NCBI GenBank assembly: GCA_041393415.1
Contig: JAWKKE010000001.1
Coordinates: 327,608 to 391,607 of the forward strand
Reading direction: 5' to 3'
DNA length: 64,000 nucleotides
From: Thermoleophilia bacterium
GTDB lineage: Bacteria; Actinomycetota; Thermoleophilia; UBA2241
The notes beneath the pieces were generated by a model that was given only the letters and a program-made list of their open reading frames with translations, was not told the origin of the DNA and did not search any database. This document shows, piece by piece, positions 5,041 to 27,233 of the stretch. The first letter of the stretch is position 1; each line of letters begins with the position of its first letter. Made by a program: the position numbers and the translations under genes.

Positions 5041-7080
5041 CTAGCCCTCGAGCGACTTCAGAACCACCCGATCGAGATCGGCATAGAAGCCGATGTCCAG
5101 CTTGCCCACGACATCCTCGGGCAGGGCCGAGAACTGAGCCTTGTTAGCTATGGGCACGAGCACGTTGATCGCGCCGTTCCCGGCCGCGACCTGCAAAGGC
5201 TCCAGGATCGACTGTGCGGCCCGGATGTTCCCCTGGATAGTCAGGTCGCCCATCACGACAGTCCCACCTCGAACCCTCTTGCCACGGAGCGCGGAGACCA
5301 GTGCGACGTAGAACGCGACGCCGCAAGGGCATGCGACCTTGCTGCCGTTGAGGTCGACCGCCTCGGCGGAGACGTTCTGTGCATGAAGGGCTTGCGCCAA
5401 CCCGATGCGATCCTTGACGGAGTCGAGGTAGGTCATCGCCCGATTCAGGGACTCCTTGATCTCCTTGTCCAGGCCCGTCGGAGTCAGCGCCTTGCCGGTG
5501 CCCGGCGACGTCGTAACCTCGATGCGGTATAGCCCCACCCGGGCCTCGGCATCGGAGGCAAGCGTGTAGACAGTGCCAGGGGCCATCGGGTCCTGCGAGA
5601 TCTGAAGCCCGCCGCCCTGCTCGGGGACCCCAACGATGATTTCGTGGTCATCATCTATGTCGTAGTAGCTGAACGTCGTCTTGAAGAACTCGAACGAGCC
5701 GCGCTTCTTGAGCTGCTCCTTGACGCGCCGCCTGCCCTCGAGCGCGAGCTCGAGGTACTCGACGAGCTCCTCCTTTGTGTAGTCGCCATCGGGGTGCAGC
5801 AGCTTCAGATATCCCGACACCGTCTTCTTGACGGCGGTAGCATCGCGACCCTCCACATTGGAACCGAGGCGGAACTGCTTCTCTACGACGTCGAAGAGGT
5901 TCTGCTTCCGCAGCGTGCGGAACGCCTCGGCGAGGTAGTCAGTGACGAACCCGTACCTCTTCGTCTGGATGTCGCGCGAGATCTTGGGCACTTCCCAGCC
6001 CGGAAGGTAGAAGTGGAAGCGGTCCATGACGGCCAGGTCGAACTCCGCCGGTAGCGACTGGAAGAGGTCGGTCGTGCCACCGGCCACTAGCGCCTCGACA
6101 GACTGATTCAGGTTACCGAGAAAGACCAAGGATGCATCAGCAAGTACCTGGGTGACACCGCGACTGAAGCGCCCGTTGGCCATGTAGTCCTTCATGATCT
6201 GGATCGTGTCGGGGTCGTTGACCTTCATTCCACCGACCTCGTCGAAGGCGACGACGTCCCAGTGGCCGACCAGTCCAACGACGCGCCGCGCGTTGTTGTA
6301 GAAGAGGTTCGCGGAGCTCGCCTTGCCTCCCGAGATGAGGATGCAGTACGGCGACATCTCGCTGAATGCATAGGACTTGCCTGTGGCGCGCGGTCCAAGC
6401 TCGATGAAGTTGTAGTTCTTCTCGACGAAGCCGATCAGGCGCGAGAGCAGGAGCAGCTTCAGCCGGTGATCGAATCGTTGCGGCTCGAGTCCGATGCTGC
6501 GCACGAGGGCATCGATCCATTCGTCTGTCGTGAACTCCCGACGACCGTCGCAGTACTCCTCGAAGTCAAAGCGCGCGAGTTGAATCGGCTTGAGCTCAGC
6601 GATGTGGAAGGGACTGCCCTTCGTACCCTCTTCGGCAGGCTGAAACTCGACATCGACTAGAGCCCAAATACCGCCTTCGAGCAGTCGGTCGTAGCGACGA
6701 TAGAACTTGTCGGTGATGTGGATCTTGTTGAAGCCGAAGTTGTCGAGCGAGGCCCAGTACTTGTTCTCGCTGGGCAGGTACCGCACTTCAACTCGGTCGA
6801 TGAAGCGATGCGTACCCTGTTGCTCCACCATCGCCTGGGCCTTGTTGGCCTCGTCATGTCGGAAGAAGTTCTTGGAGAGCGTGTCTTTGACGGCCTGAAT
6901 GCCGACTCTGATCTCATCCGGATCGTCAGACGCGCAGTACCGCCCCAGAAGGTACTCGAGGACGTACGAGGGCACATTGGCGCCACCCTTGAGCTGATGA
7001 AGAAGGTCCTTACGCACGACCTTGCCGGCAAACACACTGCCAAGCTTGGCATCGAGCTCATCACGTGTGACTGGTTGCAC
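5041..7080 (-). CDS. brxL: BREX system Lon protease-like protein BrxL
   Basis: 679 aa. N-terminus MQPVTRDELDAKLGSVFAGKVVRKDLLHQLKGGANVPSYVLEYLLGRYCASDD, then ELGPRATGKS, WDVVAFDEVGG, TVSGYLKLLHPDGDY and C-terminal Lon-protease-like domain. Collinear with BrxL. Confidence 0.9.
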   Translation of the reverse strand: MQPVTRDELDAKLGSVFAGKVVRKDLLHQLKGGANVPSYVLEYLLGRYCASDDPDEIRVGIQAVKDTLSKNFFRHDEANKAQAMVEQQGTHRFIDRVEVRYLPSENKYWASLDNFGFNKIHITDKFYRRYDRLLEGGIWALVDVEFQPAEEGTKGSPFHIAELKPIQLARFDFEEYCDGRREFTTDEWIDALVRSIGLEPQRFDHRLKLLLLSRLIGFVEKNYNFIELGPRATGKSYAFSEMSPYCILISGGKASSANLFYNNARRVVGLVGHWDVVAFDEVGGMKVNDPDTIQIMKDYMANGRFSRGVTQVLADASLVFLGNLNQSVEALVAGGTTDLFQSLPAEFDLAVMDRFHFYLPGWEVPKISRDIQTKRYGFVTDYLAEAFRTLRKQNLFDVVEKQFRLGSNVEGRDATAVKKTVSGYLKLLHPDGDYTKEELVEYLELALEGRRRVKEQLKKRGSFEFFKTTFSYYDIDDDHEIIVGVPEQGGGLQISQDPMAPGTVYTLASDAEARVGLYRIEVTTSPGTGKALTPTGLDKEIKESLNRAMTYLDSVKDRIGLAQALHAQNVSAEAVDLNGSKVACPCGVAFYVALVSALRGKRVRGGTVVMGDLTIQGNIRAAQSILEPLQVAAGNGAINVLVPIANKAQFSALPEDVVGKLDIGFYADLDRVVLKSLEG

Positions 7081-7092
7081 CTGGATCTCCCG

Positions 7093-9624
7093 TCAGTCGA
7101 GCATCGCGTTCTTGAGAGACAACTTCGCGAACAGTAGTCCTGTAACAGGATCGACGACCCGCACTTCAATCTTGTCGCCTGAGAATCCTTCGCTGATGAG
7201 AATCGGAACCTGCGTCTCCGCTCCACTACGCAGCGTTACGAGCCCGGAGGTGGCGTCGCGAGCATCGCAGTCGGCAGCCTCGCCAACGACCGCTGCCTTC
7301 TGGCCGGCGCCGTCGTAAGCTTCGACCCACACCTGCCGACTGTCGGCAAGCATGGCGTTGAACCAGACCTTCACACCAACGACGCGGCTCGTGAACTTGT
7401 CGGCCTTGTAGGCCAGACGAACCTCGCCCTCGCCGGAATCAGCAGCCCGGCCACTGGCGTCCAGCACCACCACCGGCAGCACACACTCCTGCAGGGAGAT
7501 GCCCTCGTGGAAGTAGCCGCCGCCGGCCGAAAACACCTTTAGACCGGTCGGCACCACGAGCTCCGGCGCCGGCCCGTCGATTCCGAGATCCCGCGCCTTC
7601 ATGACCAGCGACCCCGGACTTGAGCCGTGACAGCTGCCCAAGCGACAGCGACGCTTCTCAAGCAGCCACTCACCTTGCGGAGCAGCAACCACGTCACCGG
7701 GGGGGATCTCTGGGAGCAGCACGTGGCCGTGATCTGCAGCGAATACGAAGTGCTCGAAGCCCAGGGCCACGAGCGCGTCGGTCGCCTTGCGCAGGTGGGT
7801 CAACACCTTGCTCATGAACTCGCGCGCCATCAGAAGGTTCGTGCCTTCACCAAACGCATCGATGTCCTGCGAGCGCACGACGAGAAGATCAGTGCTGCCA
7901 TACTTGGCGTTCAGCTGGACACTCCGGGACGACAACAGCTCCGACAGCGTGATCTCCTTGAACCGATCTCCAAGAGTCACTTTTAGAAGCGCCATGCGAT
8001 CCGAGGAGGCAGGTAGGGATCTCTCGCCGATGTTGGGCACTAGCTCGTCGCCCTTCTTCTCCAGCCGAAGAGCCCCATCGGCTCCTGGCATGAGGGCCGC
8101 CATGCCGACCGGAGTCGTCGTCGGCAGAGACGCCGCCGCCGGCGTCAGCTCGACGCGCCCCAACGGAGCGAGTCCTTCGACAAGGTCCCGCGCCAGTTCG
8201 TAGCGCAATGCGTCCACGAGGAAGTAGACGACGCGGGTACGCTCCGTCAGAGCCGGGGCCACGTGCCTTTCGTAAGTCTGAGTCGCACGCGCGAATCCGT
8301 CCGCCGGCCAACCATCGGCCTTCACGGCGCCGAGGAACTGCTCTTGAAGCGCCTCAGCCTGCTTCCGATAGGTCGCACGACAGCGGTCGACCACGCCGTC
8401 GAGCACCTCAGCATCGGGGCACTCAGCGTAGCCCTGCTCGAAGAGGCGCTGGTGACGATCGAGGCGCCAGAGTCCGTCGTCGGCGCTATACGCTTCGATC
8501 CATTCGTGAACGGCAGTGCCCTTCTGAGGCAACGTGTGTTGTAGACCGGAGGCGTACTCCGCGAAAGCCACGCACCGCTCGAGCGCCCGCCAACGAAGAC
8601 CCTGCTCCACCACCGAAGTCCAGACTGACTGACGCCTTGACTCAACCAGGGCGCGCGCTCGATCCTGAGCGTTGTCCAGGAGGAAGGTTGCGGCTGATCT
8701 CAGGGCAGCGTCATTCTGGAATCCAAAGGTGTCCTCTGACCAGGTGCACGACCCCGTGTCAACCAACGATTGGAGATTGAGCTCCCTGGCCACTCGGTCC
8801 GCCAGATCCATGTAGTGCTCGCGCAGTGAGGCATCGTTGCGCATCCGCTCGCAAACCGCAGAGACGCGGTCCCCGCAGACATCCGGTGCGACCGGAATCG
8901 ACGTGAGCGAATCCGAGAGCGAACGGCCGACACACGCGGCTAGTTCGGATACGAGCACGAAGCGCCCGAGAGGCGGCAGCAAATCGTCCACTGCCATCTG
9001 CCCATCTGGCGCCTCGAAGCCAAGCTCAGTCTGAAGCAGCCGCAGGAGCTCATCGCGCGCGCCCGGTACGAGCTCTATGCGCTCGGCAAATTCGTCATCG
9101 CACAGGAGCTTCGACACGATCTCCACGACCGACTCGGTCCCGCACGCCGTGCCGAGGGCTGCATAGCCAGTCGACTGCTCAAGCGCGTCCAACATCCTGA
9201 TTGCCGGCATGCCCTTCGCAAAGTAACCATCAATCTCGCTCGCAGCGTCAGGCATCGCCTGGCGGGCGAGAGACTGCAGTCGCTCCGACTCCTGGTCTCC
9301 AAATGCCGTGCCAACGACTGCGAAGCCTTCGAACAGGTCCTGGACCCGTTCCTTCTCATCGGTGAACCGACTCATAGGAACGTAGATAAGCAGACTTGGA
9401 GCAGCTCCCGTGCTCCCCTCGGCGACGCTGAGACGCTCAAATGCATCTTCAGCATCTCTGCGAGCCCTCAGCCGTGATTCCGTAGCCGTGATTCGGGTGC
9501 AATCTGGGATGTCTAGACTATCGAATACCTCCTCGAACGCACCCTCTCCGTCGTACCAGACGACCACTCGGTACTGCTCGAGATACTCTCGCATCCGATC
9601 CTGGACGAAGCTCGATACCTTCAC
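7093..9624 (-). CDS. pglZ: BREX alkaline-phosphatase-superfamily protein PglZ
   Basis: 843 aa. N-terminus RVVVWYDGEGAFEEVFD and PglZ-domain VVYFLVDALRYELARDL. Lies between pglX and brxL as in type 1 BREX. ATGA overlap with upstream pglX-C stop. Confidence 0.85.
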   Translation of the reverse strand: MKVSSFVQDRMREYLEQYRVVVWYDGEGAFEEVFDSLDIPDCTRITATESRLRARRDAEDAFERLSVAEGSTGAAPSLLIYVPMSRFTDEKERVQDLFEGFAVVGTAFGDQESERLQSLARQAMPDAASEIDGYFAKGMPAIRMLDALEQSTGYAALGTACGTESVVEIVSKLLCDDEFAERIELVPGARDELLRLLQTELGFEAPDGQMAVDDLLPPLGRFVLVSELAACVGRSLSDSLTSIPVAPDVCGDRVSAVCERMRNDASLREHYMDLADRVARELNLQSLVDTGSCTWSEDTFGFQNDAALRSAATFLLDNAQDRARALVESRRQSVWTSVVEQGLRWRALERCVAFAEYASGLQHTLPQKGTAVHEWIEAYSADDGLWRLDRHQRLFEQGYAECPDAEVLDGVVDRCRATYRKQAEALQEQFLGAVKADGWPADGFARATQTYERHVAPALTERTRVVYFLVDALRYELARDLVEGLAPLGRVELTPAAASLPTTTPVGMAALMPGADGALRLEKKGDELVPNIGERSLPASSDRMALLKVTLGDRFKEITLSELLSSRSVQLNAKYGSTDLLVVRSQDIDAFGEGTNLLMAREFMSKVLTHLRKATDALVALGFEHFVFAADHGHVLLPEIPPGDVVAAPQGEWLLEKRRCRLGSCHGSSPGSLVMKARDLGIDGPAPELVVPTGLKVFSAGGGYFHEGISLQECVLPVVVLDASGRAADSGEGEVRLAYKADKFTSRVVGVKVWFNAMLADSRQVWVEAYDGAGQKAAVVGEAADCDARDATSGLVTLRSGAETQVPILISEGFSGDKIEVRVVDPVTGLLFAKLSLKNAMLD

Positions 9625-11648
9625 TCCGCAGTCCCCTCCTCCACCCCATGCGCGATCGCGATCGAGCGGTCACGCCGGCAGGCTTCCAGCACACGCTCGG
9701 GCCAGACGGCGTAGGCCAGATGCGCCCAGTCGGAGTCACCGCGCTCGAGCTTCTTCCAGCAAGCTTCGAGGTCCTTGCGCCATTTGGTCAGGCGGAAGAG
9801 CCGAGCCAGCGGCGAGGCGCAGATCAGCACGCCGTCATCGAGATCGGGCTTGTAGGGCAGCGCGGCGACGCGCAGCAGCTCCTCGCGCAGCTCGGCGAAC
9901 TCGCCCTGCAGTGTGGTGAGCTCCTCGTGTTCCTTGCGCAGCTCGCCGGCCTGCTTGCCCGTCGCTGTCGGCAGCGCGACGGCAATCTCGTTCAAGCGCC
10001 GCTGGACCTCGCTGGCCTTGGGCTCGACGTAGCGATTGACGGCCGTGTAGAGCAGGTCATCGTTCAAGCGGTGGTAGTAGAGCCAGAGGGTGTAGGAGCC
10101 GGAAGTCGTGGAGAGCGGCCAGTAGATCGGCGCCTGGCGGCGGCTCTTGGAGTACCGCCTGAGGTGCTCGGCGAAGAACCCTGAGGGCTTGGCGAAGAAG
10201 TCGCGGAGGGTCTTCGCGCCGAGTAGCGCGCAAGCTTCGTGCTCGATCTCCTCGGCTTGAGGGCCGAAGAGCAACGCCAGCACCTCGCGCACGCGGGCGA
10301 CGATGTCTTCCTGGTGAGGGCGCCCGCTATTATCGCGGCCAGGGTCGTCCACCAGCACGCCGTCCCACGAGACGCGCAGCGGGTAGCCGGCGGGCTCTTC
10401 GCCCAGTGGAAGACCGTCGTCACCGGTCAGCATCCCGGGCGAGCAGGCCGGCAGCGGCGCGAAGGGGTCAGGCAGCCCCGGCGCTGCGAACTCGCCAGTC
10501 GCGTAGCGCACGTCGAAGCGGCCGACGGCGACGCCGACGCAGTAGGCGAGCAGGTCGACGACAAGGGTGCGGGCATCGACCGTCGTCTCTGCGACTTCTT
10601 CCTCATCTGCCTCGGCCTCGGCGCCAGGCTCGCCAATTGACTCGAGGATTGCCCTGCGGTCTTCCTCCTGCAGACTGTAGAGATCGAAGACGATGTCGTC
10701 GATCTGCCGCCGGAGGTTCTCGAGCTCGCGGTCGCACGCGTCAAGGCGAGTTCGCCAGGCTGTGGCGCGGGCGATGAGGGTGGGGGCACCGATCTGGAGG
10801 AGGGCTGGAAGGTGGAAGGCGTGTGAGGTCTCGACTGCGGAGTCGCGCTCAAACATGAGCTTCCAGCCGCGCCGGGCGAGAGGGCCAAGGCGTTGATCGG
10901 CAAGTGCGGGGCATGGGGCCCCGTTGACGTAGTTGTACGCCTTGTGCTGAGCACACACCTCATTGAGCCAGGCCGCGACAGGTGCCGAGTTCAAGAGGCC
11001 GAGAAGGGGCCAGGCGTCTCGTTCATCATCCCAGAAGATGGCAGTTCCCTCGAAAGAGAAGACATGCCCTTCCGGCATCACCTGCACCGAGAAGTGATTC
11101 GTGCGCTTCCCGTAACAGAATCCGGCCTTGAAGTAATGGTCTTCTGACTGGATCTTGAATCCGTAATTGCCGTTCAGATAGGGGTACCGCTGGTTCACGT
11201 CCGCCTTCGCTTCACATCCGTCATCGGCCCAGAGAAAGACGTGGTCCGTCGACTTGTAGAACGGGGCGTACTTGGACCCATGTGCCATCGGCTTCCATCG
11301 CTGGCTCGCGCCGGTTGAGTTCGGCCGAACCTCCCACACCAGCCTGTGGAACCTTGTCGATGCGCCTATGCCTTGGTGAGCAGTGACTCCATGGCTCGAT
11401 AGGGTAGAACCACGCCTTGCCAGCTCCAGCACTGGTCCCGGAACCCGAAACGCAAACGGGGAGCCCTCGATGGCTGCAAACCGCTCAATCCGCTGTAGGG
11501 TCGTCGTCCGGAGAGCGGCGCCCTCGGTCAGGCAGAGGATGGCGCTGGCCAAAGAGTCTTCCTTCTGCCCAATGCGGAACAGGTCAATGAAAGGAGTCAC
11601 CATGAGGCTACTCTTTGTGAACGGGCGTGAAGGTCTGGAGAGCGTCAT
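9621..11648 (-). CDS. pglX: BREX PglX, C-terminal segment (675 aa) as a separate ORF
   Basis: ATG 11648..11646 overlaps the stop of the N-terminal PglX ORF (ATGA). No MTase motifs in this half. Size and position match the C-terminal (target-recognition-like) half of ~1200-aa PglX proteins. Confidence 0.7.
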   Translation of the reverse strand: MTLSRPSRPFTKSSLMVTPFIDLFRIGQKEDSLASAILCLTEGAALRTTTLQRIERFAAIEGSPFAFRVPGPVLELARRGSTLSSHGVTAHQGIGASTRFHRLVWEVRPNSTGASQRWKPMAHGSKYAPFYKSTDHVFLWADDGCEAKADVNQRYPYLNGNYGFKIQSEDHYFKAGFCYGKRTNHFSVQVMPEGHVFSFEGTAIFWDDERDAWPLLGLLNSAPVAAWLNEVCAQHKAYNYVNGAPCPALADQRLGPLARRGWKLMFERDSAVETSHAFHLPALLQIGAPTLIARATAWRTRLDACDRELENLRRQIDDIVFDLYSLQEEDRRAILESIGEPGAEAEADEEEVAETTVDARTLVVDLLAYCVGVAVGRFDVRYATGEFAAPGLPDPFAPLPACSPGMLTGDDGLPLGEEPAGYPLRVSWDGVLVDDPGRDNSGRPHQEDIVARVREVLALLFGPQAEEIEHEACALLGAKTLRDFFAKPSGFFAEHLRRYSKSRRQAPIYWPLSTTSGSYTLWLYYHRLNDDLLYTAVNRYVEPKASEVQRRLNEIAVALPTATGKQAGELRKEHEELTTLQGEFAELREELLRVAALPYKPDLDDGVLICASPLARLFRLTKWRKDLEACWKKLERGDSDWAHLAYAVWPERVLEACRRDRSIAIAHGVEEGTAE

Positions 11649-13675
11649 GGCACTCTCCGTTCGAGGCAGTATGCGGCGGTCTCAACGTTGGCGTCGAGAA
11701 CGCCGTAGCCAAGATCGGCGAATACGCCAATCTCGGTCTCTCTCAACAGGATCTCCTCGCGCCACTTCTGGAAGGACGACAGGAAGAACCCCGTTCGCGA
11801 TGTGATAGCGCCAAGACGACCACGAGGAACGAGCATTTCGAGCCCCCTTTCAACAAAAGCCGCATAGAGGTCGTTCTTAGTGCGCAGATAGGTCTTGTCG
11901 ACGTATGCCTTCGAACCCTTCGCCGGCTCGCCGAACGGGGGATTCATCAGGACGACGTCAAACCGCTGACGGCAGAGGTCCACGAAAGCGAGGCCCTGGC
12001 CCGCATCGTCGCTGAAGAGTCGGCGCCGCATTCCGGACTCCACTTCGACCTGCGCAGCGTATGCCCTAAGGCCGTCGAGGATCCTGGTCTCCGCCGTGGC
12101 CCAGAACTGATCATCGGTGATTCCAGAGACGTCGAAAAGCTCGGGTTGACGAGCAGAGGGCATCTCTAGCTCGGGCGCCAGTACCATCTGCTTCTGCGCG
12201 TTCGCCGCTGCCCACTGATCTCTTGCCGTATCTATCAGTCTGCAGAGCTGTTCTTCCGCCTTGAGTAGGACACCGAGCTCTCCGGCCGGCCTAAGCAGAT
12301 CGGCAAATGCAACCGTCAGCTGTCGCAGAGCCTCGGGTTGCAGCGTGTGAGTGAAATCTGTCAGCAGCCGCGCATCGCCCGGCATGGGCTCCGCGCAGAC
12401 CACGTTTGTCTTCGTGATGGGCTGGAGCTCCACGTCTGCGTCCCGACCGAATCTCTGTGCACGCAGCCAAAGCGCGAGTGCAGCCACTTGAGCCGTCCGC
12501 GGATCGATGTCTACACCATAGAGGTTGCGCTCGATGACGAGACGAGGAATCGCCGAGCGCAAAGCTCCCAGCTCTGGGTAGTCGTCCCGCAGTGTCGCCC
12601 CTGTAGCCGCGCTGGAAGGCGAAGACTCGTCTTCCCACGCCTCCTCGTAGATTGAAGCAAGGACGTCGAACGCATAGAGCAGGAAGTGGCCCGAACCACA
12701 CGCAGGGTCGACGACCTGGAAGTCCCGAGGGTCCCTCTTGTCGCGCCACGAGATGTAGGCGGGGAGCTGCAGAAGATCCTCGCGGCTCAGGTCGATCCCG
12801 TCTGCTTCGTCGTCCGGCACAGGCTCGCCCAGAGTGAGGAAGACCTCTGTCGGACGATGGACTAGGTATCTACATTCCTCGGCAAGCCTCGTGCTGCCCT
12901 GGCGCATCTCGTACCAGATTCGACCGAGCGTGTTGTCCACCAAGAACTCCACCACATACCGCGGCGTGAAGAACTGATTTCGCACGGCAAGTTCACGCGA
13001 GTTCCGAGGCGCCGATGCAGCCTTGCGCATCGCTTTGCGCTCGTCATCTGAGTTGAAGTACTGGAAGACCCAGCCGATAGTCTCATCCTCGTCCCAGACG
13101 TCCGAGAGGTCCTCGCTGGTAAGCTCCGCGAGTACCTCTTGCAGACACGTCTCGTCGGGGAAGACGACGGACTGCGGCGCATCCGGGTCGAAAAGCACGC
13201 CGAGCTCAACTGCGAGCTCACGGAACACGGCCGTCAGGAAGCTGCGATAGGCGGCAGTGCGACCCCCAAGCGCCCCACCCGAGAGCTGCTCGAAGAGACG
13301 AAATCCCTCCGACTCCAGGCCACGCCTCACGCACTCCACCATGTAATCGCGCTCTTCGCACATGCGCAGCGCGACGAGTCGGTTGAGCGTCGTGAAGGAC
13401 GTCTCATAGGCCATCCGCGCAAACGCCAAGGCAAGACGATTTTGATCCGAGCCGGATTCCAGAGTCGCCAGATGGTCCTGCCACTGGCGGAGAATCTCGG
13501 CTCTCCGAAGGCCGCGTTCGTCGAGATGCTGCAGCTGGTCCATGTCGAGACGGTCGCCATCGGGCTGCAGACCATACTCCTGCTGCATCCTCCTCTCGAC
13601 GCTGGCGACGAGGAGGTCACGACTACGACCAACGGCTCGAGCCAGGATGTTTCGGGTGCCGGTGTCGAGAGCCAT
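11645..13675 (-). CDS. pglX: BREX N6-adenine DNA methyltransferase PglX, N-terminal methyltransferase segment (676 aa)
   Basis: AdoMet-binding motif I VVDPACGSGHFLLYAFD and catalytic motif IV LMNPPFGE. Follows brxC with a 6-nt gap. Confidence 0.85.
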   Translation of the reverse strand: MALDTGTRNILARAVGRSRDLLVASVERRMQQEYGLQPDGDRLDMDQLQHLDERGLRRAEILRQWQDHLATLESGSDQNRLALAFARMAYETSFTTLNRLVALRMCEERDYMVECVRRGLESEGFRLFEQLSGGALGGRTAAYRSFLTAVFRELAVELGVLFDPDAPQSVVFPDETCLQEVLAELTSEDLSDVWDEDETIGWVFQYFNSDDERKAMRKAASAPRNSRELAVRNQFFTPRYVVEFLVDNTLGRIWYEMRQGSTRLAEECRYLVHRPTEVFLTLGEPVPDDEADGIDLSREDLLQLPAYISWRDKRDPRDFQVVDPACGSGHFLLYAFDVLASIYEEAWEDESSPSSAATGATLRDDYPELGALRSAIPRLVIERNLYGVDIDPRTAQVAALALWLRAQRFGRDADVELQPITKTNVVCAEPMPGDARLLTDFTHTLQPEALRQLTVAFADLLRPAGELGVLLKAEEQLCRLIDTARDQWAAANAQKQMVLAPELEMPSARQPELFDVSGITDDQFWATAETRILDGLRAYAAQVEVESGMRRRLFSDDAGQGLAFVDLCRQRFDVVLMNPPFGEPAKGSKAYVDKTYLRTKNDLYAAFVERGLEMLVPRGRLGAITSRTGFFLSSFQKWREEILLRETEIGVFADLGYGVLDANVETAAYCLERRVP

Positions 13676-13681: not shown

Positions 13682-16600
13682 CTAGCTCCACGTGATTCTG
13701 ATCGACTTGCCGGCCTTGATGACGGCGTCGAATCGCGCGCGGAGGGCGTCAAGCCATTCCTTCAGGTCTTCAGCATTCTCAATCAGGCCCGGAGGCGCGA
13801 GCGTCGATGCAGCAACCAGTTCCTGAGAATCAGTCGGAGGAAGTTCGGCGGGCGCTTCAACCTGCACTGCCCGCATTGCCGCGTCTCTTTCGGCGAGCAA
13901 CTGAACGCCCGCGACGAGCAGGCGCTGGAGATCCTCGCATTCGTGTCCGTCGCGCGCCTTGGGAGGCAGGCCGCTCGCACCAACACTGGCGGCAATGGCC
14001 TCCCGTTCCGATTCGGAGAGACGCGTCCAGTCTGGCACAGCCTGCACTGCCGCCAGCGCACGTTCGACGCCCGCCAAGTACTCCGTCAAAGCCGACTCGT
14101 ACTGCCTGGCGAGCGACTTGACGATGCTAACCACGCCGTTGCGGATCTGCGGGAGTCGTTCATGGAATGCATTGGACGTCAAGTCATCTTCGAGCGTCAC
14201 AAGCGTGTCCTCGCTGACCGATTCCTTGAGCTGAGCCCCGAAAAGCACCTGAAGTGAACGCACCTCAGAGACCAGGGACCTGGCCCGAACCAGGTCAGCC
14301 TCGGCACCACCGTCAAAGGTCTTCTCCAAAGCCCGCGCCCATTTGGTGTCAGCAAGAAGACTCGACTGTTCGGCAGCGAGGATCGATACCTTACCCACCT
14401 CGTCCTGCTGTAGGAGACTCGTCAGGGTGTCCACAACGGCCCTGGCCCGCTCTTCTCCCGGAAGGCCCAGCAAGCGTAGGCGCTCCGGAAGATTCGCGAG
14501 ATCGTCGACCAACAGACTGACATGCTCCTTGACGGCCTTCGCAATCGAATCCTCGAGCGGCATGACCTTGATGCCGAACATGTCCCGCAATCGCTCTGCG
14601 GCGTGCGAGAGATCCTCGAATGAGACGGGCGTCTCGCGTCGTGACACCCCAAGCCGGTTGAACGCGACAGCCGACTTGACGGCATCGCGGGCCGCCGGTC
14701 CGGCGCCGCGAATCACACCGTCTGGCCCGTGGAACTCAACCTCCTTGCCGACCAGCAGTGCCGCGAAAAGGTACCGCGTCGCATCCTTCGACCACCCATA
14801 GGGAGCCGCAGCAAACATGTCCTGAATCGCACTCCCCTGTAGGCGACCCGCACTGCCGGCCTCTTCGAGCCGCTGATCAAGTGCCCGAAGAGTCTCAGCC
14901 AAAGCATCGCAGTCGGTATCGACCCGAGGAGAGCTGCCCTTCGTGAGCACCAGACCTAGCGGATCCAGCTCCTTGGTCATCTTCGCGAGCTCTTCGACTC
15001 CGAGGAACTTGGCAGCCAAGTCAGTCTGGGGCCGAATCGGCACGAGAGTGAAGCTCTTGAAGAGGTCTCCGGCCGCTTCGCCCAGGAGCTTCTTGGACGC
15101 AGCAAGAAGGGTCTCACCCGCTTCAGATACGGGGGTCGAACGGCCTCGAAAGACGAAGGTCCCTTCCAGCAGGGCCCGCTCGAGCAGGGCGCGCACTCTC
15201 CTCCGCGCCGCGTCTGACGCTTGACGCTCGGCGCGAAGGAACTGCGCGACGTCGCGGTCGGTTTCACTCTCTCGCGTAACGCTCAGCACCCAGTCGGACC
15301 GACACGCTCGGATGAGTTCGTCCTCAAGTTCCTCCGGCGTCGATACGAGCCAGACGATCTGATCCCTAAGCTCGGGGGAGGTGTTCGTCTCAACGAGGAG
15401 TTCTTTGCGGCGAACCTCCACGCTTCGCGCATCCACCATGTGGATCCTGAAGTCGACATCGGCACCGTCGCCGACGATGCGGACCTTCTCGAAGCGAACG
15501 CCGCCTTTGACTTCCTTCACGTTCTGAAGCCGGACCGACGGAGTCGGGTCGAAGACGCCCTCGAGTACCTTGTTGCGCAGCAGGCTGACCTCACCACCAG
15601 TCGGGATGTGTTCGTCGCGCTTCTTGATCAACGGACGGACACCGGCGCTGAGGAACAGGAAGCCGCCGGCTTGTGGATCGTCCACCACGCCACACTCTGA
15701 GTCCGCAGCCAGCCTACCGAGCGCGGCGCGCACTTCGTCAACGAGCGAAGGTGCCCCTAGTTCGGGACACAGAAGGGCCGCGATGTTCTCCGGAGTCCGC
15801 GGGAAATCCTCAAGTGCCTGGAGCGCCCCGATTGCTTTGGCAACACGCACGACGAACGCATCAGTAGCGAACGCCTTCTCCACGCGATCGACGCCCTCCG
15901 CGACAAACGGGAGCACCTTCTCGATGTCTCCACGAAGGGTGTTGTAGATGTCATCGATACAGGCGAGCGACCCTATCGGCCGGTCGGCTATCGGAATGGC
16001 GCCCGGCGGAAGCAGCCTACTCGCGTCCACAAGAAGGTCCTGAATAACCCGGATTGCAGAGCGCAGGCCTATGCCGCCGGTCGACCGAGCAAGGCTCCTG
16101 ATGAGCTCCAACAGCAGGTCGAAATGCTGCGGAAGGAACGGATACAGATGAGCAAAGGTGTCGGCATCGGGATCGCCCCTGAAGAGACGGGTGCCCGTCA
16201 GCCGTGTGTGCGTCGCGAGTGCCTGGCCGTGGCGAGAGAACAAATCCTTCAGGTCGGCCTCCGCTTGGTCGGACTTGGCCAGCAAGCGCCGATACGTGAT
16301 CTCCTTGATGTCTTGGGCTTCGAGATTGATGGCAATTGGGAAGCGGTCCTTGAGCTTGCTCAACTCGGCGGAGTTCAGCGCCGCCTTCTCGACGATTTCG
16401 GTGAGGGTCTGCTGACCCGTACACGCGATCCAGACCCTGCCCCGACCAAGCTCCTTGAAGTTCCGAGCCAGTCCGTCAAGGTTGAGAATCAGCTGGTTGC
16501 GGGGCGCAACATACTGGCCAGCCTCATCAACCAGGAAGAGGACGTTCTCCTTCCCTGACTTGCGACGGGCAAGTTCGATCATGCGCTCTGCAAGGCCGCG

Positions 16601-17317
16601 TAGGTCCTCGGCCTGCTCGAACCTGAGCTTGGAGAAGGACTCCGGAGTCGGGAACGTCTCGGGCAGCAGCTCCGGCACAATCTGAGCCGCATGCGCCACG
16701 CCGACCATGGGGTCGTTGTGGATGTCATCCCAGGCACCATCGAACTTCGCCGAGTACAGCTCTTTGAAACGCTCAAGCAGCTCACGACGCTCAAGTGTGA
16801 ACTCGAGATCGGCGAGCTTCGTTTCGGTCGAGTACCCACCCCACTGCAGGAGCTTGCGGTAAAGCACTTCTGAGACCGGCGCGGATGCGTCGGAAGCAAG
16901 CTGCTCTGCTCCAAGGTCGAGCATGATGACGGCTGTCGGATGAGCCCCCGTGAGGGACAGCATCATTGCCCGCGTGTCCTTCGACGGCAGTCGATCGCAC
17001 AACAGATCTGTGAAACGCCGATCCTCGACTGTCTTTGTGTCGTCGAGGGCGAAGCCGAGGTACTTGGTGAATGAGCTCTTGCCGGAGCCGTAGAAGCCGG
17101 CGACCCACACGCCAATCTCCGTGACCTGGCCCCTGTCTACCCCGTCCGAGAAGGTCTCGAGGAAATGGCGAAAGCAGGCTTCGATGTGCTCGGTAACCTC
17201 ATACTCGTCAATCTCGGCAGCCAGGCGCTTTTCGTCGACCGCGTAGTAGTCGATGACCTTCTCGATGGGCCGGTCAATCGGCCGGCGTGTCGAGAACAAC
17301 TCCCTGACTGTCTTCAC
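13682..17317 (-). CDS. brxC: BREX P-loop ATPase BrxC (PglY-like)
   Basis: 1211 aa. Walker A in VAGFYGSGKSSFTKYLG, Walker B-like VLFLVDEAGQY. ATGA overlap with brxB stop at 17314-17317. Confidence 0.88.
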   Translation of the reverse strand: MKTVRELFSTRRPIDRPIEKVIDYYAVDEKRLAAEIDEYEVTEHIEACFRHFLETFSDGVDRGQVTEIGVWVAGFYGSGKSSFTKYLGFALDDTKTVEDRRFTDLLCDRLPSKDTRAMMLSLTGAHPTAVIMLDLGAEQLASDASAPVSEVLYRKLLQWGGYSTETKLADLEFTLERRELLERFKELYSAKFDGAWDDIHNDPMVGVAHAAQIVPELLPETFPTPESFSKLRFEQAEDLRGLAERMIELARRKSGKENVLFLVDEAGQYVAPRNQLILNLDGLARNFKELGRGRVWIACTGQQTLTEIVEKAALNSAELSKLKDRFPIAINLEAQDIKEITYRRLLAKSDQAEADLKDLFSRHGQALATHTRLTGTRLFRGDPDADTFAHLYPFLPQHFDLLLELIRSLARSTGGIGLRSAIRVIQDLLVDASRLLPPGAIPIADRPIGSLACIDDIYNTLRGDIEKVLPFVAEGVDRVEKAFATDAFVVRVAKAIGALQALEDFPRTPENIAALLCPELGAPSLVDEVRAALGRLAADSECGVVDDPQAGGFLFLSAGVRPLIKKRDEHIPTGGEVSLLRNKVLEGVFDPTPSVRLQNVKEVKGGVRFEKVRIVGDGADVDFRIHMVDARSVEVRRKELLVETNTSPELRDQIVWLVSTPEELEDELIRACRSDWVLSVTRESETDRDVAQFLRAERQASDAARRRVRALLERALLEGTFVFRGRSTPVSEAGETLLAASKKLLGEAAGDLFKSFTLVPIRPQTDLAAKFLGVEELAKMTKELDPLGLVLTKGSSPRVDTDCDALAETLRALDQRLEEAGSAGRLQGSAIQDMFAAAPYGWSKDATRYLFAALLVGKEVEFHGPDGVIRGAGPAARDAVKSAVAFNRLGVSRRETPVSFEDLSHAAERLRDMFGIKVMPLEDSIAKAVKEHVSLLVDDLANLPERLRLLGLPGEERARAVVDTLTSLLQQDEVGKVSILAAEQSSLLADTKWARALEKTFDGGAEADLVRARSLVSEVRSLQVLFGAQLKESVSEDTLVTLEDDLTSNAFHERLPQIRNGVVSIVKSLARQYESALTEYLAGVERALAAVQAVPDWTRLSESEREAIAASVGASGLPPKARDGHECEDLQRLLVAGVQLLAERDAAMRAVQVEAPAELPPTDSQELVAASTLAPPGLIENAEDLKEWLDALRARFDAVIKAGKSIRITWS

Positions 17318-17883
17318 ATGCCACCCCCCACCATCGTCGCGCGGTAGTTGCCGTCGACGGGATAGAACCCCAAATAGTGCAGACCGTACTGGCCGGAACG
17401 CCGGCCGGGATAGAACAAGACTGTTGGCACTCTGACCCGATCATGAAGACCACTCTCGAGCGCGTGGACACGCCAGAACGGGTGGAGGAGCAACGCATCT
17501 GTAAGGAAGACAATTGTCTGTGGTCTCGCCTCCGAGACATGTGCTTCAACCGCCTTGATGAAGGCATTGTCCGTATTCGCCACGTTGCGGACCGCGCTGT
17601 TGACGTCCTCCGGATCCACGTCGCCTTCCAGCTCGAGCCACTGGTCCCATCGGCCGGATGCGTCCACAAGACCCCAGAGAATCTCGCGCAATGACACCAC
17701 CTCTACCGTCCACCCCTCGTTCGACAGCGCCGCCGACCACACTGGGATGCTCTGGGCTACCTCGTTCGTCTCGGTCGGATCATGCACAAAGTAGAAGAGG
17801 GGATCGCTCTTGGCCGGATTCAGCGCGCCGGGGCGATTCAGAAGCTCAAGGAACTGCTCGAAGGTCTCATTCAGCGAGGACAT
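17314..17883 (-). CDS. brxB: BREX protein BrxB (DUF1788)
   Basis: Chosen ATG 17883..17881 (MSSLNETFEQFLELL) is preceded by GAGGTGG. The track ORF extends to 17940. Size ~190 aa and position between brxA and brxC. Confidence 0.75.
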   Translation of the reverse strand: MSSLNETFEQFLELLNRPGALNPAKSDPLFYFVHDPTETNEVAQSIPVWSAALSNEGWTVEVVSLREILWGLVDASGRWDQWLELEGDVDPEDVNSAVRNVANTDNAFIKAVEAHVSEARPQTIVFLTDALLLHPFWRVHALESGLHDRVRVPTVLFYPGRRSGQYGLHYLGFYPVDGNYRATMVGGGM

Positions 17884-18664
17884 CAACCACCTCATCGACA
17901 GATTCTTGCTTCCAGCTGAAGCGGGCGACCGACCCGGCAATCTGCAGGAGCCACCACTGCCCGTAGTCGCTCGAGGCCAGCTCCGTGACCAAACGCGAGC
18001 GGTCGAATCCGTAGAGCATCCAGTCCCGGTGGTCGAGGATCGCTTGGTCGCTGAGTCCAGAAGAGCGGAGATCGTAGGCCAGATAGACCAGGGCCTCTGG
18101 TGCGGCCCTATAAGGGACAGTCTCGCGGCGCCCCTTGGCTGCTTCGCGGAGCAGCCCGTACTCGACTAGGGACTTCACCAGCGCGCGTGCGATCTTCTTG
18201 GCGACCTCGTCGGACCAGGGAACTGGTATCAGGCCCTCGGCGTCGGCCTGCCGAATGAAACGAACGAAATCGTCAACGGTCAAGCTGAGTCGTCCTTCAT
18301 TCAGCCCCGGCCAGTACACTTTGGTCACCGCGTCGCGCAGCAACAAGTCGTTTCGCGCCGAATACAGCATGCACAGGTCCGCGACGGCATGGGGCGACAA
18401 ATCCGCTTCGAGCAGAAGCCTGAGCCGACGGGCAGGTGCGTCAGTTGGTAGGAGAAAGCGATTCGCGAACACGCGTCTCGCGATGTCTTGGGAACGCCGG
18501 GCTGAGCTCTTGCCGAGGATGTCTTCGCTGATCACTCTGTCGCAGAACTCTCCGACCGGTTCACCGGGCTCCCACGCCCGCAACAGCCGCTTCATCTCGT
18601 CGATTAGCGCGCTGCCCTTGGAAATCGCAATCGTATAGCGACGAGCGGACTCGCGGTCGTTCAT
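17867..18664 (-). CDS. brxA: BREX protein BrxA (DUF1819-like)
   Basis: Start ATG 18664 (MNDRESARRYTIAISKG) shares ATGA with the stop of the upstream unknown ORF. Call is mainly positional (first gene of brxABC-pglXZ-brxL) plus size. Confidence 0.65.
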   Translation of the reverse strand: MNDRESARRYTIAISKGSALIDEMKRLLRAWEPGEPVGEFCDRVISEDILGKSSARRSQDIARRVFANRFLLPTDAPARRLRLLLEADLSPHAVADLCMLYSARNDLLLRDAVTKVYWPGLNEGRLSLTVDDFVRFIRQADAEGLIPVPWSDEVAKKIARALVKSLVEYGLLREAAKGRRETVPYRAAPEALVYLAYDLRSSGLSDQAILDHRDWMLYGFDRSRLVTELASSDYGQWWLLQIAGSVARFSWKQESVDEVVDVLAE

Positions 18665-19197
18665 CGACCCGCCTCGGCCGCTTCGAAGTACGGGTAACAG
18701 CGTGCTCCCGTGGCACATGCAGACGCGTAGGCAGAGGCGAGCTTCGGCAGAGCCCTGCCGGACGAGAGCTCCGACTCGCTCCCGAACGAGATCGGTCCAG
18801 CAACGCCATCGCTCTCGACCGAGCCGGCGGTCTCGCCAAGCCAGTCGATGAGGACGGCCGCGTTGCCCCCCAAGACCGTCCGTATCTGCTCCCGGAGAGA
18901 CTCATCGTTGAGGTGCTCGAAGAAGCGACACTCGAGCGCGACGGGCAGCCGGAAGAGGTGAAAACGGCCGCCGACGCCGACCTTGGAGTCATGGTCGTCA
19001 CGCGCAGCAGACGAGGTCGAACGCACAGCCGTGAGGAGTGCCGTCCGCGGGAAGATCATCTCAGTCGCCGAAAGACCCGCGGGCGTGAGGAACTGAGTGC
19101 GCCACCAAGGCGGCTTCGCGCGTTCCCCAAGTGCGGCGACCACGCATCGAAGCAGAGCCAATCGGTCGAGCGCACGCCCGCTACTGGCGTTCTCCAC
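18661..19197 (-). CDS. Hypothetical protein (up to 178 aa) immediately upstream of and translationally coupled to brxA
   Basis: Stop TGA overlaps brxA ATG (ATGA at 18661-18664). Protein-like segment HLNDESLREQIRTVLGGNAAVLIDWLGETAGSVE. No known domain. Start uncertain (19197 or internal M). Confidence 0.4.
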   Translation of the reverse strand: MENASSGRALDRLALLRCVVAALGERAKPPWWRTQFLTPAGLSATEMIFPRTALLTAVRSTSSAARDDHDSKVGVGGRFHLFRLPVALECRFFEHLNDESLREQIRTVLGGNAAVLIDWLGETAGSVESDGVAGPISFGSESELSSGRALPKLASAYASACATGARCYPYFEAAEAGR

Positions 19198-19427
19198 TTG
19201 CCCCTCCCCCCAACATACTCACGCCCTGCTGCGCGCCGCCCAGACGCCAGCCGCAGAGTCTTTCCAGGGAAGCCGCGAACAGGCGTTACTTCGAGTGTGA
19301 CGAGTCTACTCTAAGAGGTGGACGAACCCGAGCCTAGGTTCAGCGCGCTCCCGCGAATCCTCAGCTCGTTCCAGAAGCTCCACGCACCGTGGAAATGCCT
19401 CAAACACGACGCTACCTGGCGCCAGAC

Positions 19428-20702
19428 CTAGGCGTCGTGGCGAGTCGGCTTCCGTGCCAAATTCCTCAGTTCGTCCCGGAGGACTGTGCACGGGTCAATG
19501 GATCGGGCGTACCGCAAGGCCCAGCCGAGCTCCCACCTTGTCGCGAGATTCATCTCCGCCACGTCGCCGCGACCGATCACCAGCTGGGCCCTCTCGCTCA
19601 CATACGCGCGGATGTCGCGGGCCAGGCGCCATGCCTCAAGCTCCCGCAGAAGCTTCTTCTCGCGCTCGTCCTCCGCCCACACGTGCTGCTGACGCGCCCA
19701 ACGGCGGCGCTCCGCCTCAATGTCCGCAATCCGGCGCCGCTTGGCATCTTCCTCGGCCGCGATGCGAAGGCGCTCTATCTCTTCCCGATCCAACCGGACA
19801 GCGAGTGCGACGGCACCGAGGCGACTGATGAACTCGCCCACGCGCTCCTCCAGCCGTTCCTTCTTGCCGTCGCTCCAGGTCGCCCGAACACCTAGACGCT
19901 TCGCGTTCGTGATAGCGAGTGACAGTACGCCAGTCGGCCGATAGGTATAGGTTGTCGGAACGCGTTCCTCGTAGAACGTGCCGTCCCATGCAGTCCTGCG
20001 TCGAGGCGGGTCAGGCTTCGGGTTCTCATGGCGCTCCACTCGCTCGCTGATCGCAAACTCCAGCCACTCGTCCTCACACAGCACCCGGGTGACTCGCTCT
20101 TCCGGATCGCACGGCTGTTGGGCTTCCCAGATCGAGCGGCGCGGCGGCTTCTTGCCCTTTGGCTTCACGATCCGCTCTTCCACGCGAAGGCCGGCGCCCT
20201 CCATGCCTTTCACGAGGGCGTCAGCAATGCGAAGAGCGCGGTCGAGGGACGTCGGCGACACGTTGATGTCCAGGCACGGCTTGTTGGTCCACGGCAGCAG
20301 GCCGTCATAGCGTGGCTTTGCCTTAGTGAGGTGCTGCAGGGTGCGCACGACAAGCGGATGAGGGTCCGTGAGGTTGTCGGCGACGACAACGTCATGCTCC
20401 AGTCGAAGGGGCGCGACGTCGTCGAGCTCGGGGCGACGGGGCCGCGGCGCCGGCCGCGAGCGAGCGAAGGACACGAGCCGGTCGGGCTGACCCTTCTTGA
20501 GCCGCGGCAGTGCTGGCTTCTTGGGCGCGCTGCCAGCCTGCTTCTTCGCCCAGTAGCCACGTGGAGGCAATGGAACAGTCAGCTTGCGACAAGTCTTGGC
20601 CAGGGCCACGTCCGATACGCCGTACCTCTCGGCAACCTTGACGACTGGCTCGGCCCAGACTTCTTCGTACAGTCTGTCGCGCTCGTAGACCACGTAGTTC
20701 AT
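19428..20702 (-). CDS. Hypothetical protein (424 aa) with N-terminal HTH-like motif and C-terminal charged coiled-coil
   Basis: N-terminus YERDRLYEEVWAEPVVKVAERYGVSDVALAKTCRKLTVPLPPRGYWAKK looks like a conserved DNA-binding module. C-terminus is Arg/Glu-rich (EERRRWARQQHVWAEDEREKKLLRELEAWR). Same orientation as the BREX operon, 230 bp upstream of 18661..19197. Confidence 0.5.
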   Translation of the reverse strand: MNYVVYERDRLYEEVWAEPVVKVAERYGVSDVALAKTCRKLTVPLPPRGYWAKKQAGSAPKKPALPRLKKGQPDRLVSFARSRPAPRPRRPELDDVAPLRLEHDVVVADNLTDPHPLVVRTLQHLTKAKPRYDGLLPWTNKPCLDINVSPTSLDRALRIADALVKGMEGAGLRVEERIVKPKGKKPPRRSIWEAQQPCDPEERVTRVLCEDEWLEFAISERVERHENPKPDPPRRRTAWDGTFYEERVPTTYTYRPTGVLSLAITNAKRLGVRATWSDGKKERLEERVGEFISRLGAVALAVRLDREEIERLRIAAEEDAKRRRIADIEAERRRWARQQHVWAEDEREKKLLRELEAWRLARDIRAYVSERAQLVIGRGDVAEMNLATRWELGWALRYARSIDPCTVLRDELRNLARKPTRHDA

Positions 20703-20821
20703 CTGCCCACCCCGAGTCGCGTGTGGCTGACCTTCCGCAACGGGGTTCCACCCTGAGCCGCCTCGAAGGTCCAGACGGAATCAATATGATAGCCGCGGCG
20801 AGCGCATCGGGGGCGGACAGC

Positions 20822-26967: not shown

Positions 26968-27000
26968 GGGTGCCTCCTCGGAGTCGTTCGGTGAAACGGT

Positions 27001-27230: not shown

Positions 27231-27233
27231 GCT

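Follow-up and report, generated by a model that had tools for sequence, protein, structure and literature searches.

A BrxE-bearing BREX operon and an adjacent, probably independent, HTH-like gene in a Thermoleophilia genome

The window (the whole 64,000-nt stretch of contig JAWKKE010000001.1 that was analysed) carries a BREX operon on its minus strand. Two genes directly upstream of brxA had been put forward, in a sequence-only reading, as candidate novel BREX accessory or regulatory components. The features of the locus are given below; loci compared with the window are numbered (L082 and so on).

19428..20702, minus strand: 424-aa gene, ATG start; NCBI hypothetical protein R2826_01535 of a Thermoleophilia MAG
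20538..20681, minus strand: HTH-like module at the N-terminus of the 424-aa protein (residues 8-55, modelled as three short helices)
19572..19820, minus strand: Arg/Glu-rich single long helix of the 424-aa protein (residues 295-377; DSSP on the AlphaFold model, pLDDT 94-98)
19198-19427, minus strand: intergenic gap between the 424-aa gene and brxE, 230 bp
19352..19427, minus strand: window-specific stretch at the junction of the 424-aa gene and the BREX leader, a 76-bp indel relative to L081-L083
19198..19351, minus strand: conserved brxE leader, 154 bp, candidate BREX promoter/5'UTR (putative promoter role)
18661..19197, minus strand: brxE, 178 aa, GTG start, opening the BREX operon
18661..18664, minus strand: ATGA stop/start overlap of brxE and brxA, read from the sequence (TGA 18661-18663, ATG 18662-18664)
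17867..18664, minus strand: brxA (Pfam BrxA 7.5e-21; PADLOC BrxA 1.2e-71)
17314..17940, minus strand: brxB (Pfam BrxB 1.3e-16; PADLOC BrxB 1.2e-39)
13682..17317, minus strand: brxC/pglY (PADLOC BrxC, 1246 bits)
9621..13675, minus strand: pglX, two overlapping ORFs (11645-13675 and 9621-11648)
7093..9624, minus strand: pglZ (PADLOC PglZ 1.1e-207)
5041..7080, minus strand: brxL (TIGR02653, 837.5 bits vs a cutoff of 628; PADLOC BrxL 3.2e-272)

The ORF list and the sequence itself confirmed both upstream ORFs as described earlier: their coordinates, the minus strand, the 230-bp gap and the ATGA overlap with brxA. For the 424-aa gene, identity to the related locus L082 at the three codon positions was 0.86/0.88/0.64; for the 178-aa gene it was 0.95/0.98/0.89. 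Because of this codon-position conservation, the existence of homologues and the high AlphaFold confidence, both ORFs are genuine genes. The possibility that the 178-aa ORF is a high-GC artefact is contradicted by its conservation pattern, by a family with 1017 representatives of 50%-identity clusters (E<=0.001) and by a model with pLDDT 92.9. Direct reading of the sequence places GGGGGAGGGG at 19201-19210, ahead of the brxE GTG, with the Shine-Dalgarno motif GGAGG at 19203-19207. The 4-nt brxE/brxA overlap recurs in L081-L083, L089, L090 and L098. The 419-aa ORFs on either side of the locus, at 3717-4976 and 20723-21982, were considered as a related pair and rejected, as they show no mutual relationship.

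The gene order of the operon is brxE-brxA-brxB-brxC-pglX(N)-pglX(C)-pglZ-brxL. The core set of BREX type 1 (BrxA, BrxB, BrxC, PglX, PglZ and BrxL) is complete by PADLOC, Pfam or NCBIfam. The two pglX ORFs cover positions 1-658 and 668-1289 of the PADLOC PglX model and score 423 and 270 bits, respectively, with NCBIfam BREX_1_MTaseX. For pglZ, the top NCBIfam model is a type-6 one (BREX_PglZ_6), with a score under its cutoff. No BrxD or BrxHI was found in the operon, and no gene separates brxC from pglX. A nearby helicase was tried as BrxHI and discarded (1379 bits with PDC-M23B vs 64 bits with BrxHI).

By sequence family, the 178-aa ORF is brxE, an already catalogued BREX component. The protein matches NCBIfam NF033447 (BrxE_fam) with 121.1 bits against a cutoff of 40 (E 5.8e-35), and the match spans profile positions 1-169 of 169. 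An identical NCBI protein (P0121) already bears the name ‘BrxE family protein’ together with a precomputed PF26412 assignment; PF26412 is present on all 78 BrxE homologues. Two RefSeq plasmids annotate the same arrangement, from BrxE to BrxL. With these matches the suggested novelty of the ORF falls away. The earlier view that both genes are unlike the known BREX components thus fails for the 178-aa ORF.

An alignment of 39 BrxE sequences, the window protein included, shows invariant residues G24, E25, W31, W32, R33, P50, H69, H80-LFRLP85, E89, G134, Y157 and P169; the invariant motifs are WWR, HD, HLFRLP and PY. The AlphaFold model (pTM 0.90) is a compact single-domain α/β structure, for which no PDB relatives were found by sequence profile or by fold. 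In 9 of the 9 other loci (L081-83, L087-90, L097 and L098) BrxE lies immediately 5' of BrxA-B-C-PglX-PglZ, and in two of them (L097 and L098) the BREX operon terminates in BrxL. This fixed position and the ATGA overlap bear out the view of the 178-aa gene as a BREX-linked, co-oriented and translationally coupled component. The overlap would couple translation of BrxE to that of BrxA. Because the compact α/β fold carries invariant E25, W31-W32-R33, H69(D70), H80-LFRLP, E89 and Y157, we infer that BrxE is most likely a stoichiometric partner of BrxA and the BrxB/C core, acting at a DNA-recognition or assembly step.

BrxE was first described in type 6 BREX, and the window protein agrees with it in passing the same family threshold, in the invariant motifs and in the position 5' of brxA. 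Unlike type 6 BREX, the window operon ends in BrxL and lacks BrxD and BrxHI, and its BrxE does not reach the BREX-6 equivalog NF033448 (23.6 bits vs a cutoff of 80). Since the operon ends in BrxL, with no BrxD or BrxHI, it is made up of a type-1 gene set plus BrxE. It is a BrxE-bearing BREX of the type-1/type-6 clade. A 2025 preprint (10.1101/2025.10.09.681413), with reference to the founding BREX study, still treats BrxE as a component of type 6 alone whose function is unknown. The combination of BrxE with a type-1 set ending in BrxL is already present in RefSeq annotation, while the published six-type scheme keeps BrxE specific to type 6.

The 424-aa protein (a 100% match to P0001 in the homologue search) belongs to a large family: 272 homologues were scored, and species-representative genomes yielded at least 485 matches. 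Members occur in Actinomycetota, Myxococcota, Planctomycetota, Nitrospirota, Pseudomonadota, Acidobacteriota and Bacillota, and on plasmids (44 PLSDB records). Searches of Pfam, NCBIfam, PADLOC and PHROGs gave no significant match to the protein; the sole Pfam return at E<=0.1, ISG65-75, is spurious. A full-text literature search for the RGYWAK-type motif of the family found no paper.

The HTH-like N-terminus and the Arg/Glu-rich helical tail noticed earlier are both borne out by the AlphaFold model (pLDDT 90.4), in which a three-helix N-terminal module and an α/β middle domain are followed by the single 83-residue helix 295-377. In the model this helix is likely a coiled-coil oligomerisation element. 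No fold match was found for the protein, and no PDB relatives by sequence profile for the family or its N-terminal module. The segment VAERYGVSDVALAKTCRKLTVPLPPRGYWAKK (residues 22-53) lies within the predicted three-helix module, whose invariants in the family alignment are R8, L11, W16, P19, S30, K36, C38, P44, P46, G49 and W51. Similarity of the module to RWP-RK is sub-threshold in 22 of 24 members (best E 7.1e-5, below the cutoff), and there are sub-threshold matches to HTH_6 and HTH_Tnp families as well. In BFVD the same module turns up in phage proteins and in GcrA and HNH entries, every match having E>0.001; the module is also found as stand-alone proteins of 60-100 aa.

Phage HNH homing endonucleases (of Salmonella, Stenotrophomonas, Vibrio and Erwinia phages) share the module, with 40-61% identity over residues 8-57; Foldseek aligned 48 columns at 48% identity and rmsd 1.0. 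The C-terminus of phrog_15471, a family of HNH homing endonucleases, gave a weak match (E 0.0022). Unlike these enzymes, the 424-aa protein contains neither an HNH nor any other nuclease domain, and the common part is limited to ∼50 residues.

We surveyed the neighbourhood of 80 family loci out of the 485 matches, using crude ORF calls. A tblastn search with all BREX proteins found no BrxA, BrxB, BrxE, PglZ or BrxL within 10 kb in these 80 loci, no PglX either, and one BrxC-like match. Relatives with 64-66% identity to the 424-aa protein lie beside HigB/M78 and Fic genes, a 53% relative in a helicase/DUF island, and a 43% relative beside type I RM and OLD-like ATPases, all of them with no BREX. 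A 73% relative (L084) was considered as a second BREX-adjacent case and rejected: the locus has no BrxE, BrxA, BrxB or BrxC, and a PglX/PglZ-like system of a different kind is situated ∼6 kb from the 424-aa homologue.

Pfam assignments for 139 immediate neighbours include ankyrin (6), HTH_3 (6), integrase (5), helicases (5), AbiEi (4) and HipA (3); no brx family is among the 25 commonest neighbour families listed. All-against-all clustering of ORFs from the 80 loci found no neighbour present in more than 7 loci, antisense shadow ORFs excepted. What had looked like tandem family members proved to be ankyrin-repeat proteins with no relation to the family, joined only via two run-on ORFs. Viewed from the BREX side, seven other BrxE-BREX loci have no 424-aa gene, and the gene 5' of brxE is a different one in every other BrxE locus examined.

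BREX lies directly beside a 424-aa homologue in one near-identical element only. In this sister element the 424-aa protein is 79% identical to that of the window and BrxE/A/B/C are 90-96% identical, with the 76-bp indel in between. The two elements have in common an integrase and a DnaB/AAA_25 backbone. The cargo upstream of the 424-aa gene is PDC-M23 in the window and CBASS in the sister element. The pair of the 424-aa gene and BREX was retained although the cargo beyond it was exchanged, an observation that fits a functional link as well as mere co-inheritance.

Because adjacency to BREX is confined to this one lineage of mobile elements, the 424-aa protein, as judged from gene neighbourhoods, is probably not a BREX part. 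The proposal of a BREX accessory finds no brx synteny in the 80 loci or at 64-66%, 53% and 43% identity; the position next to brx genes is not kept beyond the 79% element. For this gene, that is the outcome which the sequence-only reading itself had named as refuting its proposal.

The 230-bp gap had been thought to hold the BREX promoter, and one part of it could do so. The brxE-proximal 154 bp are 92% identical to L082, vs 79% for the coding sequence of the 424-aa gene, and include TAnnnT hexamers read from the sequence at 19308-19313 and 19303-19308. The 76 bp beside the 424-aa gene are an unrelated insertion, with 9% identity in the global alignment and a break of the blastn blocks. The BREX operon probably has its own promoter in the conserved leader. 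Scans for sigma-70 sites and terminators found no sigma-70 consensus site in the leader and no terminator between the 424-aa gene and BREX, and an Rfam search of 18600-21100 gave no match. The RNA fold of the leader is not more stable than that of shuffled sequences (z +1.9). No motif common to the leader and the DNA that precedes the 424-aa gene was found, nor inverted repeats with arms >=7 bp in either. As no terminator was detected and the 424-aa gene is co-oriented with BREX, read-through transcription may therefore occur.

In our judgement it is likely that, while the 178-aa ORF is brxE of the BREX operon, the 424-aa gene is a separate autonomous cassette. The 424-aa protein would bind DNA as a dimer or oligomer, independently of BREX, with the 83-residue helix probably driving oligomerisation, and would act as a regulator or DNA organiser of its carrier element. 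The gene would have come to lie between two interchangeable defence cargos by chance. Its family is typical of mobile elements and defence islands.

KfrA-like plasmid proteins combine an N-terminal HTH with a long α-helical coiled-coil tail. The 424-aa protein resembles them in its predicted DNA-binding head and long charged helix and in its occurrence on plasmids or mobile elements; it differs in having no KfrA_N match and in possessing an additional central α/β domain and, at the C-terminus, a helical hairpin, so that the analogy is a functional one only. By this analogy the gene might serve a KfrA-like backbone function of an integrative element or plasmid (maintenance, partition or excision control), a possible though doubtful reading. 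It would agree with the PLSDB records, with 12-kb Burkholderia plasmids where the gene shares an operon with genes for a nucleotide-binding protein and for a tyrosine recombinase, with the rank of integrases among the most frequent immediate neighbours and with the backbone shared by the window and the sister element. However, in the window the backbone genes are ∼6.5 kb away from the 424-aa gene, with cargo in between; no KfrA_N or partition-protein domain was found by Pfam at E<=0.1, and around many chromosomal loci no trace of a mobile element is seen within 10 kb.

It is rather unlikely that the family represents a new promiscuous defence-island factor, either a regulator upstream of many immune cassettes or a stand-alone immune sensor. 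The cassettes would be BREX here and HigB, Cap4 nuclease, SNF2 helicase and ankyrin partners elsewhere.

Still less probable, in our view, is that the gene acts by itself in defence or abortive infection, or that it supplies the DNA-sensing part of a two-gene module, for example with an ankyrin-repeat partner. Such a role would suit a gene flanked here by PDC-M23 and BREX and elsewhere found beside CBASS, Hachiman, type I RM, OLD-like ATPases, AbiE, HigB and Fic, with, in 8 of 80 loci, an ankyrin-repeat partner coupled to it in translation, and with an N-terminal module in common with phage homing endonucleases. The protein nevertheless lacks a PADLOC match, a recognisable effector or enzymatic domain and a fold match, and in many loci its neighbours are ordinary (histidine kinases, response regulators, housekeeping genes).

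Regulators of the BrxR/CapW type, with a WYL domain, occur upstream of BREX and other defence operons. Like them, the 424-aa gene encodes an HTH-bearing protein and is located 5' of, and co-oriented with, a defence operon, and its relatives lie beside varied defence cassettes; unlike them, the protein lacks a WYL domain and any match in Pfam or PADLOC, is much larger, has an α/β domain and the 83-residue helix, and its gene shows no conserved adjacency to any single system. The least probable reading, a lineage-specific BREX transcriptional regulator binding the 230-bp gap in a BrxR-like role, could appeal to the HTH-like N-terminus, to the co-oriented position immediately 5' of brxE with no terminator found, to the pair kept in the sister element despite the exchanged upstream cargo, and to ∼21 of 70 family loci whose following gene has the same orientation and lies no more than 150 bp away (several such genes being of defence type: Cap4 nuclease, SNF2 helicase, HNH, HsdR, nucleotidyltransferase), but BREX synteny is limited to one element, other BrxE-BREX loci have no such gene, the leaders share no motif and hold no inverted repeat of the length sought, a non-conserved insertion abuts the stop codon of the 424-aa gene, and Pfam detects no WYL or other known regulator domain.

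For BREX biology the gain is small, as brxE is already catalogued. The useful outcome is a negative one: the large HTH gene is not to be counted among BREX components. Two leads follow. BrxE, with more than 1000 clusters at 50% identity and a confident model, is without structural or functional precedent. The family of the 424-aa protein, for which the libraries searched hold no model, is large, unnamed and tied to mobile elements.

The two genes ahead of brxA are laid out as the sequence-only reading had described: read from the sequence, the 424-aa gene lies 230 bp from the 178-aa gene, whose stop codon overlaps the brxA ATG (ATGA).

19428-20702, minus strand: 424-aa gene, ATG start
18661-19197, minus strand: 178-aa ORF (brxE), GTG start

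Just ahead of the brxE start, GGGGGAGGGG is located at 19201-19210. Next after brxE comes brxA (Pfam BrxA, 7.5e-21; PADLOC BrxA, 1.2e-71), followed by brxB, brxC, pglX (two overlapping ORFs), pglZ and brxL, every one strongly matched by Pfam, PADLOC or NCBIfam; the gene set of this BREX operon is that of type 1. The pglX gene (whole span 9621-13675) is split into 11645-13675 and 9621-11648 on the minus strand, with a 4-nt overlap. Its N half is 81% identical to that of the sister element (loci L081-L083, close relatives of this locus); the C half has 63% identity to L081 and 31% to L082/83, low in comparison with the N half and with BrxA-C (90-96%), which suggests a swappable specificity half. 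The Thioflavicoccus plasmid among the compared loci also has a split pglX, with additional genes between the halves.

Both ORFs are real genes. By codon position, identity to L082 was 0.86/0.88/0.64 in the 424-aa gene, and brxE reached 0.95/0.98/0.89. For the 424-aa protein 272 homologues were scored, and the 178-aa family profile matched 1017 cluster representatives (E<=0.001) among 1.84 billion. AlphaFold models computed from the family alignments were confident, that of the 424-aa protein with pLDDT 90.4 (pTM 0.68) and that of the 178-aa protein with pLDDT 92.9 (pTM 0.90). The idea that the 178-aa ORF is a non-coding artefact is contradicted by its codon-position identity, its cluster representatives and its confident model.

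The 178-aa gene had been proposed as novel; it is already known as brxE. The protein matches NCBIfam NF033447 (BrxE_fam) end to end (121.1 bits; curated cutoff 40), an identical NCBI protein from a Thermoleophilia MAG is named 'BrxE family protein', and Pfam PF26412 is carried by that protein and by all 78 word-search homologues. Strongly conserved motifs in the alignment are AALGE…PPWWRTQF, HD, HLFRLP…E, GP…G and PYF. Synteny was sampled in L081-83, around four more distant homologues at 38-48% identity, and on two RefSeq plasmids (Bacteroidota and Gammaproteobacteria). The suggested BREX linkage of this gene was borne out: BrxE lies directly 5′ of BrxA-BrxB-BrxC-PglX-PglZ in every locus sampled, often with the 4-nt overlap kept, and both plasmid operons are annotated, with BrxL at the end. 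This BREX subtype thus opens with a conserved gene that is already known and is coupled in translation to the next.

According to a 2025 preprint (10.1101/2025.10.09.681413), which here cites the founding BREX study, BrxE occurs in type 6 alone and its function is unknown; the preprint itself argues for counting types 5 and 6 among the subtypes of type 1. Unlike type 6, the operon has BrxL and no BrxD or BrxHI (PADLOC/NCBIfam), and its BrxE scored 23.6 bits with the BREX-6 equivalog model, below the cutoff of 80. From the failed model, the absent genes and the subtype argument, the operon is therefore placed as a BrxE-plus-BrxL member of the type-1/6 clade, an arrangement that genome annotation pipelines recognise already. 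Searches by sequence and by fold found no solved structure related to BrxE. We propose, from its fixed adjacency to brxA and translational coupling, that BrxE would partner BrxA.

Of the two proposed BREX components, then, one stands, as a gene already known, whereas the 424-aa gene is not tied to BREX. Its direct placement upstream of BrxE-BREX was seen in one sister element only (homologue P0002, 79% identity; L081-83). The 73% relative has Hachiman upstream; BrxE, BrxA, BrxB and BrxC are missing there, and all it has is a different PglX/PglZ-like system ∼6 kb off. In the 64-66% relatives HigB and an M78 peptidase come next, with Fic flanking; the 53% relative is surrounded by helicase and DUF genes, and the 43% relative borders a type I restriction system with OLD-like ATPases and, in the other direction, housekeeping genes. 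When all the window's BREX proteins were run by tblastn on 80 genome loci, with 10 kb to either side, no BrxA, BrxB, BrxE, PglX, PglZ or BrxL turned up, and there was a single BrxC-like match. At every other BrxE locus examined a different gene stands 5′ of brxE (AbiEi/DUF6088, RNase-H-like helicase, MFS transporter, UPF0489).

Unbiased clustering of ORFs flanking 424-aa-family genes gave no partner exceeding 7 loci, and a Pfam census of 139 immediate neighbours counted ankyrin repeats (6), HTH_3 (6), integrases (5), helicases (5), AbiEi (4), HipA (3) and HsdM/R (2). Among family neighbours PADLOC found SNF2-type helicases, AbiEi and type I enzymes, all at comparably low counts. The most frequent neighbour, an ankyrin-repeat protein of ∼400 aa with no homology to the 424-aa family, is paired with the family gene in 8 of the 80 loci, downstream in L015, L016, L026, L037, L054 and L075 and upstream or fused in L048 and L051. 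At the six downstream junctions the two genes overlap by up to 50 bp or stand up to 30 bp apart, so that such pairs may be translationally coupled.

Pfam, PADLOC and NCBIfam gave no match to the 424-aa protein, and its named homologues are all 'hypothetical'. The family is large and spreads widely over the phylogeny: scanning one genome for each species gave 485 matches that were confirmed, and 44 PLSDB records show it on plasmids. The alignment and AlphaFold model delimit these parts:

residues 8-55: conserved N-terminal module, R-x2-LY-x2-VW-x-P…VSDVALAK-x-C…P-x-P-x-RGYW
between module and α/β domain: linker
residues ∼116-280: α/β domain with conserved PH-x-LV, LDRALRI, TRV…E and W-x-DGK…LE
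residues 295-377: Arg/Glu-rich helix of 83 residues, then a C-terminal helical hairpin

The N-terminal module matched HTH families below threshold only (RWP-RK in 22 of 24 members, plus HTH_6 and transposase HTH). The same module is carried by annotated phage HNH endonucleases (40-61% identity) and makes up stand-alone proteins of 60-100 aa; outside it, no fold match was found in the PDB. We take the whole as a probable DNA-binding protein that would form dimers or oligomers.

Protein identity to the sister element is 79% for the 424-aa protein, 92% for BrxE, 96% for BrxA, 94% for BrxB and 90% for BrxC. DNA identity is 0.71-0.89 over the 424-aa gene, collapses in a window-specific 76-bp stretch (19352-19427), and rises to 0.91-0.98 over 18400-19351, which takes in the 154-bp leader, brxE and the 5′ end of brxA. 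Because of this collapse and rise, the leader goes with brxE, not with the 424-aa gene. The tract 18400-19351 (minus strand) points to recent recombination or extra nucleotide-level constraint; third-codon identity is 0.89 in brxE and 0.64-0.76 in brxA-C. An intergenic BREX promoter had been suggested, and the conserved leader, with TAnnnT hexamers read from the sequence at 19303-19313, would be its natural place, but a sigma-70 consensus scan found nothing. A search for a terminator past the 424-aa gene found none, so read-through into BREX is possible. Rfam had no match at the junction, RNA stability of the leader was not unusual, the leader and the 424-aa upstream region had no motif in common, and neither contained inverted repeats with arms of at least 7 bp.

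Other genes of the window include:

136-633, minus strand: HTH_3 protein
750-3257, plus strand: 835-aa protein with GmrSD_N (DUF262-type) domain, PADLOC candidate system HEC-05 (692 bits), downstream of brxL
3133-4976, plus strand: 212-aa and 419-aa ORFs between brxL and the HEC-05 gene
20723-21982, plus strand: divergent 419-aa ORF, GTG start as listed
22079-25342, minus strand: PDC-M23B, 1087 aa, DEAD-box helicase related to Hachiman HamB (1379 bits)
25339-26160, minus strand: PDC-M23A, 273 aa (290 bits)
27234-28643, minus strand: DnaB_N/AAA_25 protein of the integrative-element backbone (26355-31346)
30219-31346, plus strand: tyrosine integrase of the same backbone

The integrase and DnaB/AAA_25 backbone is shared with the sister element at 90.5% DNA identity over 2.5 kb (26355-28888 compared with L081). 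Between backbone and 424-aa gene, the sister element has a type II CBASS and the window has PDC-M23, a two-gene candidate defence system (22079-26160, minus strand), and the divergent 419-aa ORF. Searches of Pfam, PADLOC, NCBIfam and PHROGs gave no match to this ORF. The GTG given as its start is just 20 bp from the 424-aa ATG, so its true start is probably further in. The sister element has no more of it than the first 64 codons (69%), with CBASS in place of the remainder, and this marks a cargo-exchange breakpoint. The ORFs at 3133-4976 had no Pfam or PADLOC match; the 212-aa one, which overlaps the last part of the HEC-05 ORF, is possibly spurious. G+C climbs from 0.59-0.67 over 1-26 kb, where most values fall within 0.60-0.65, to 0.69-0.73 at 26-29 kb; this fits a defence island gained by horizontal transfer.

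We favour the reading in which the 424-aa gene would be a self-contained cassette from the pool of genes that mobile elements and defence islands draw on. An element-maintenance function, which overlaps with this reading, is a tentative alternative. It draws on 12-kb Burkholderia plasmids in which a full-length family member is in operon with a tyrosine recombinase: on the 12.4-kb B. pseudomallei plasmid (L099), small and without an annotated replication gene, the member at 2466-3662 (hhalign probability 99.85%) appears to share an operon with the recombinase and a nucleotide-binding protein. A stand-alone or two-gene immune function is unlikely, and a lineage-specific BREX regulator is about as improbable. 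The 424-aa gene belongs to a family that is still unnamed, and this family is the one lead that the analysis leaves.
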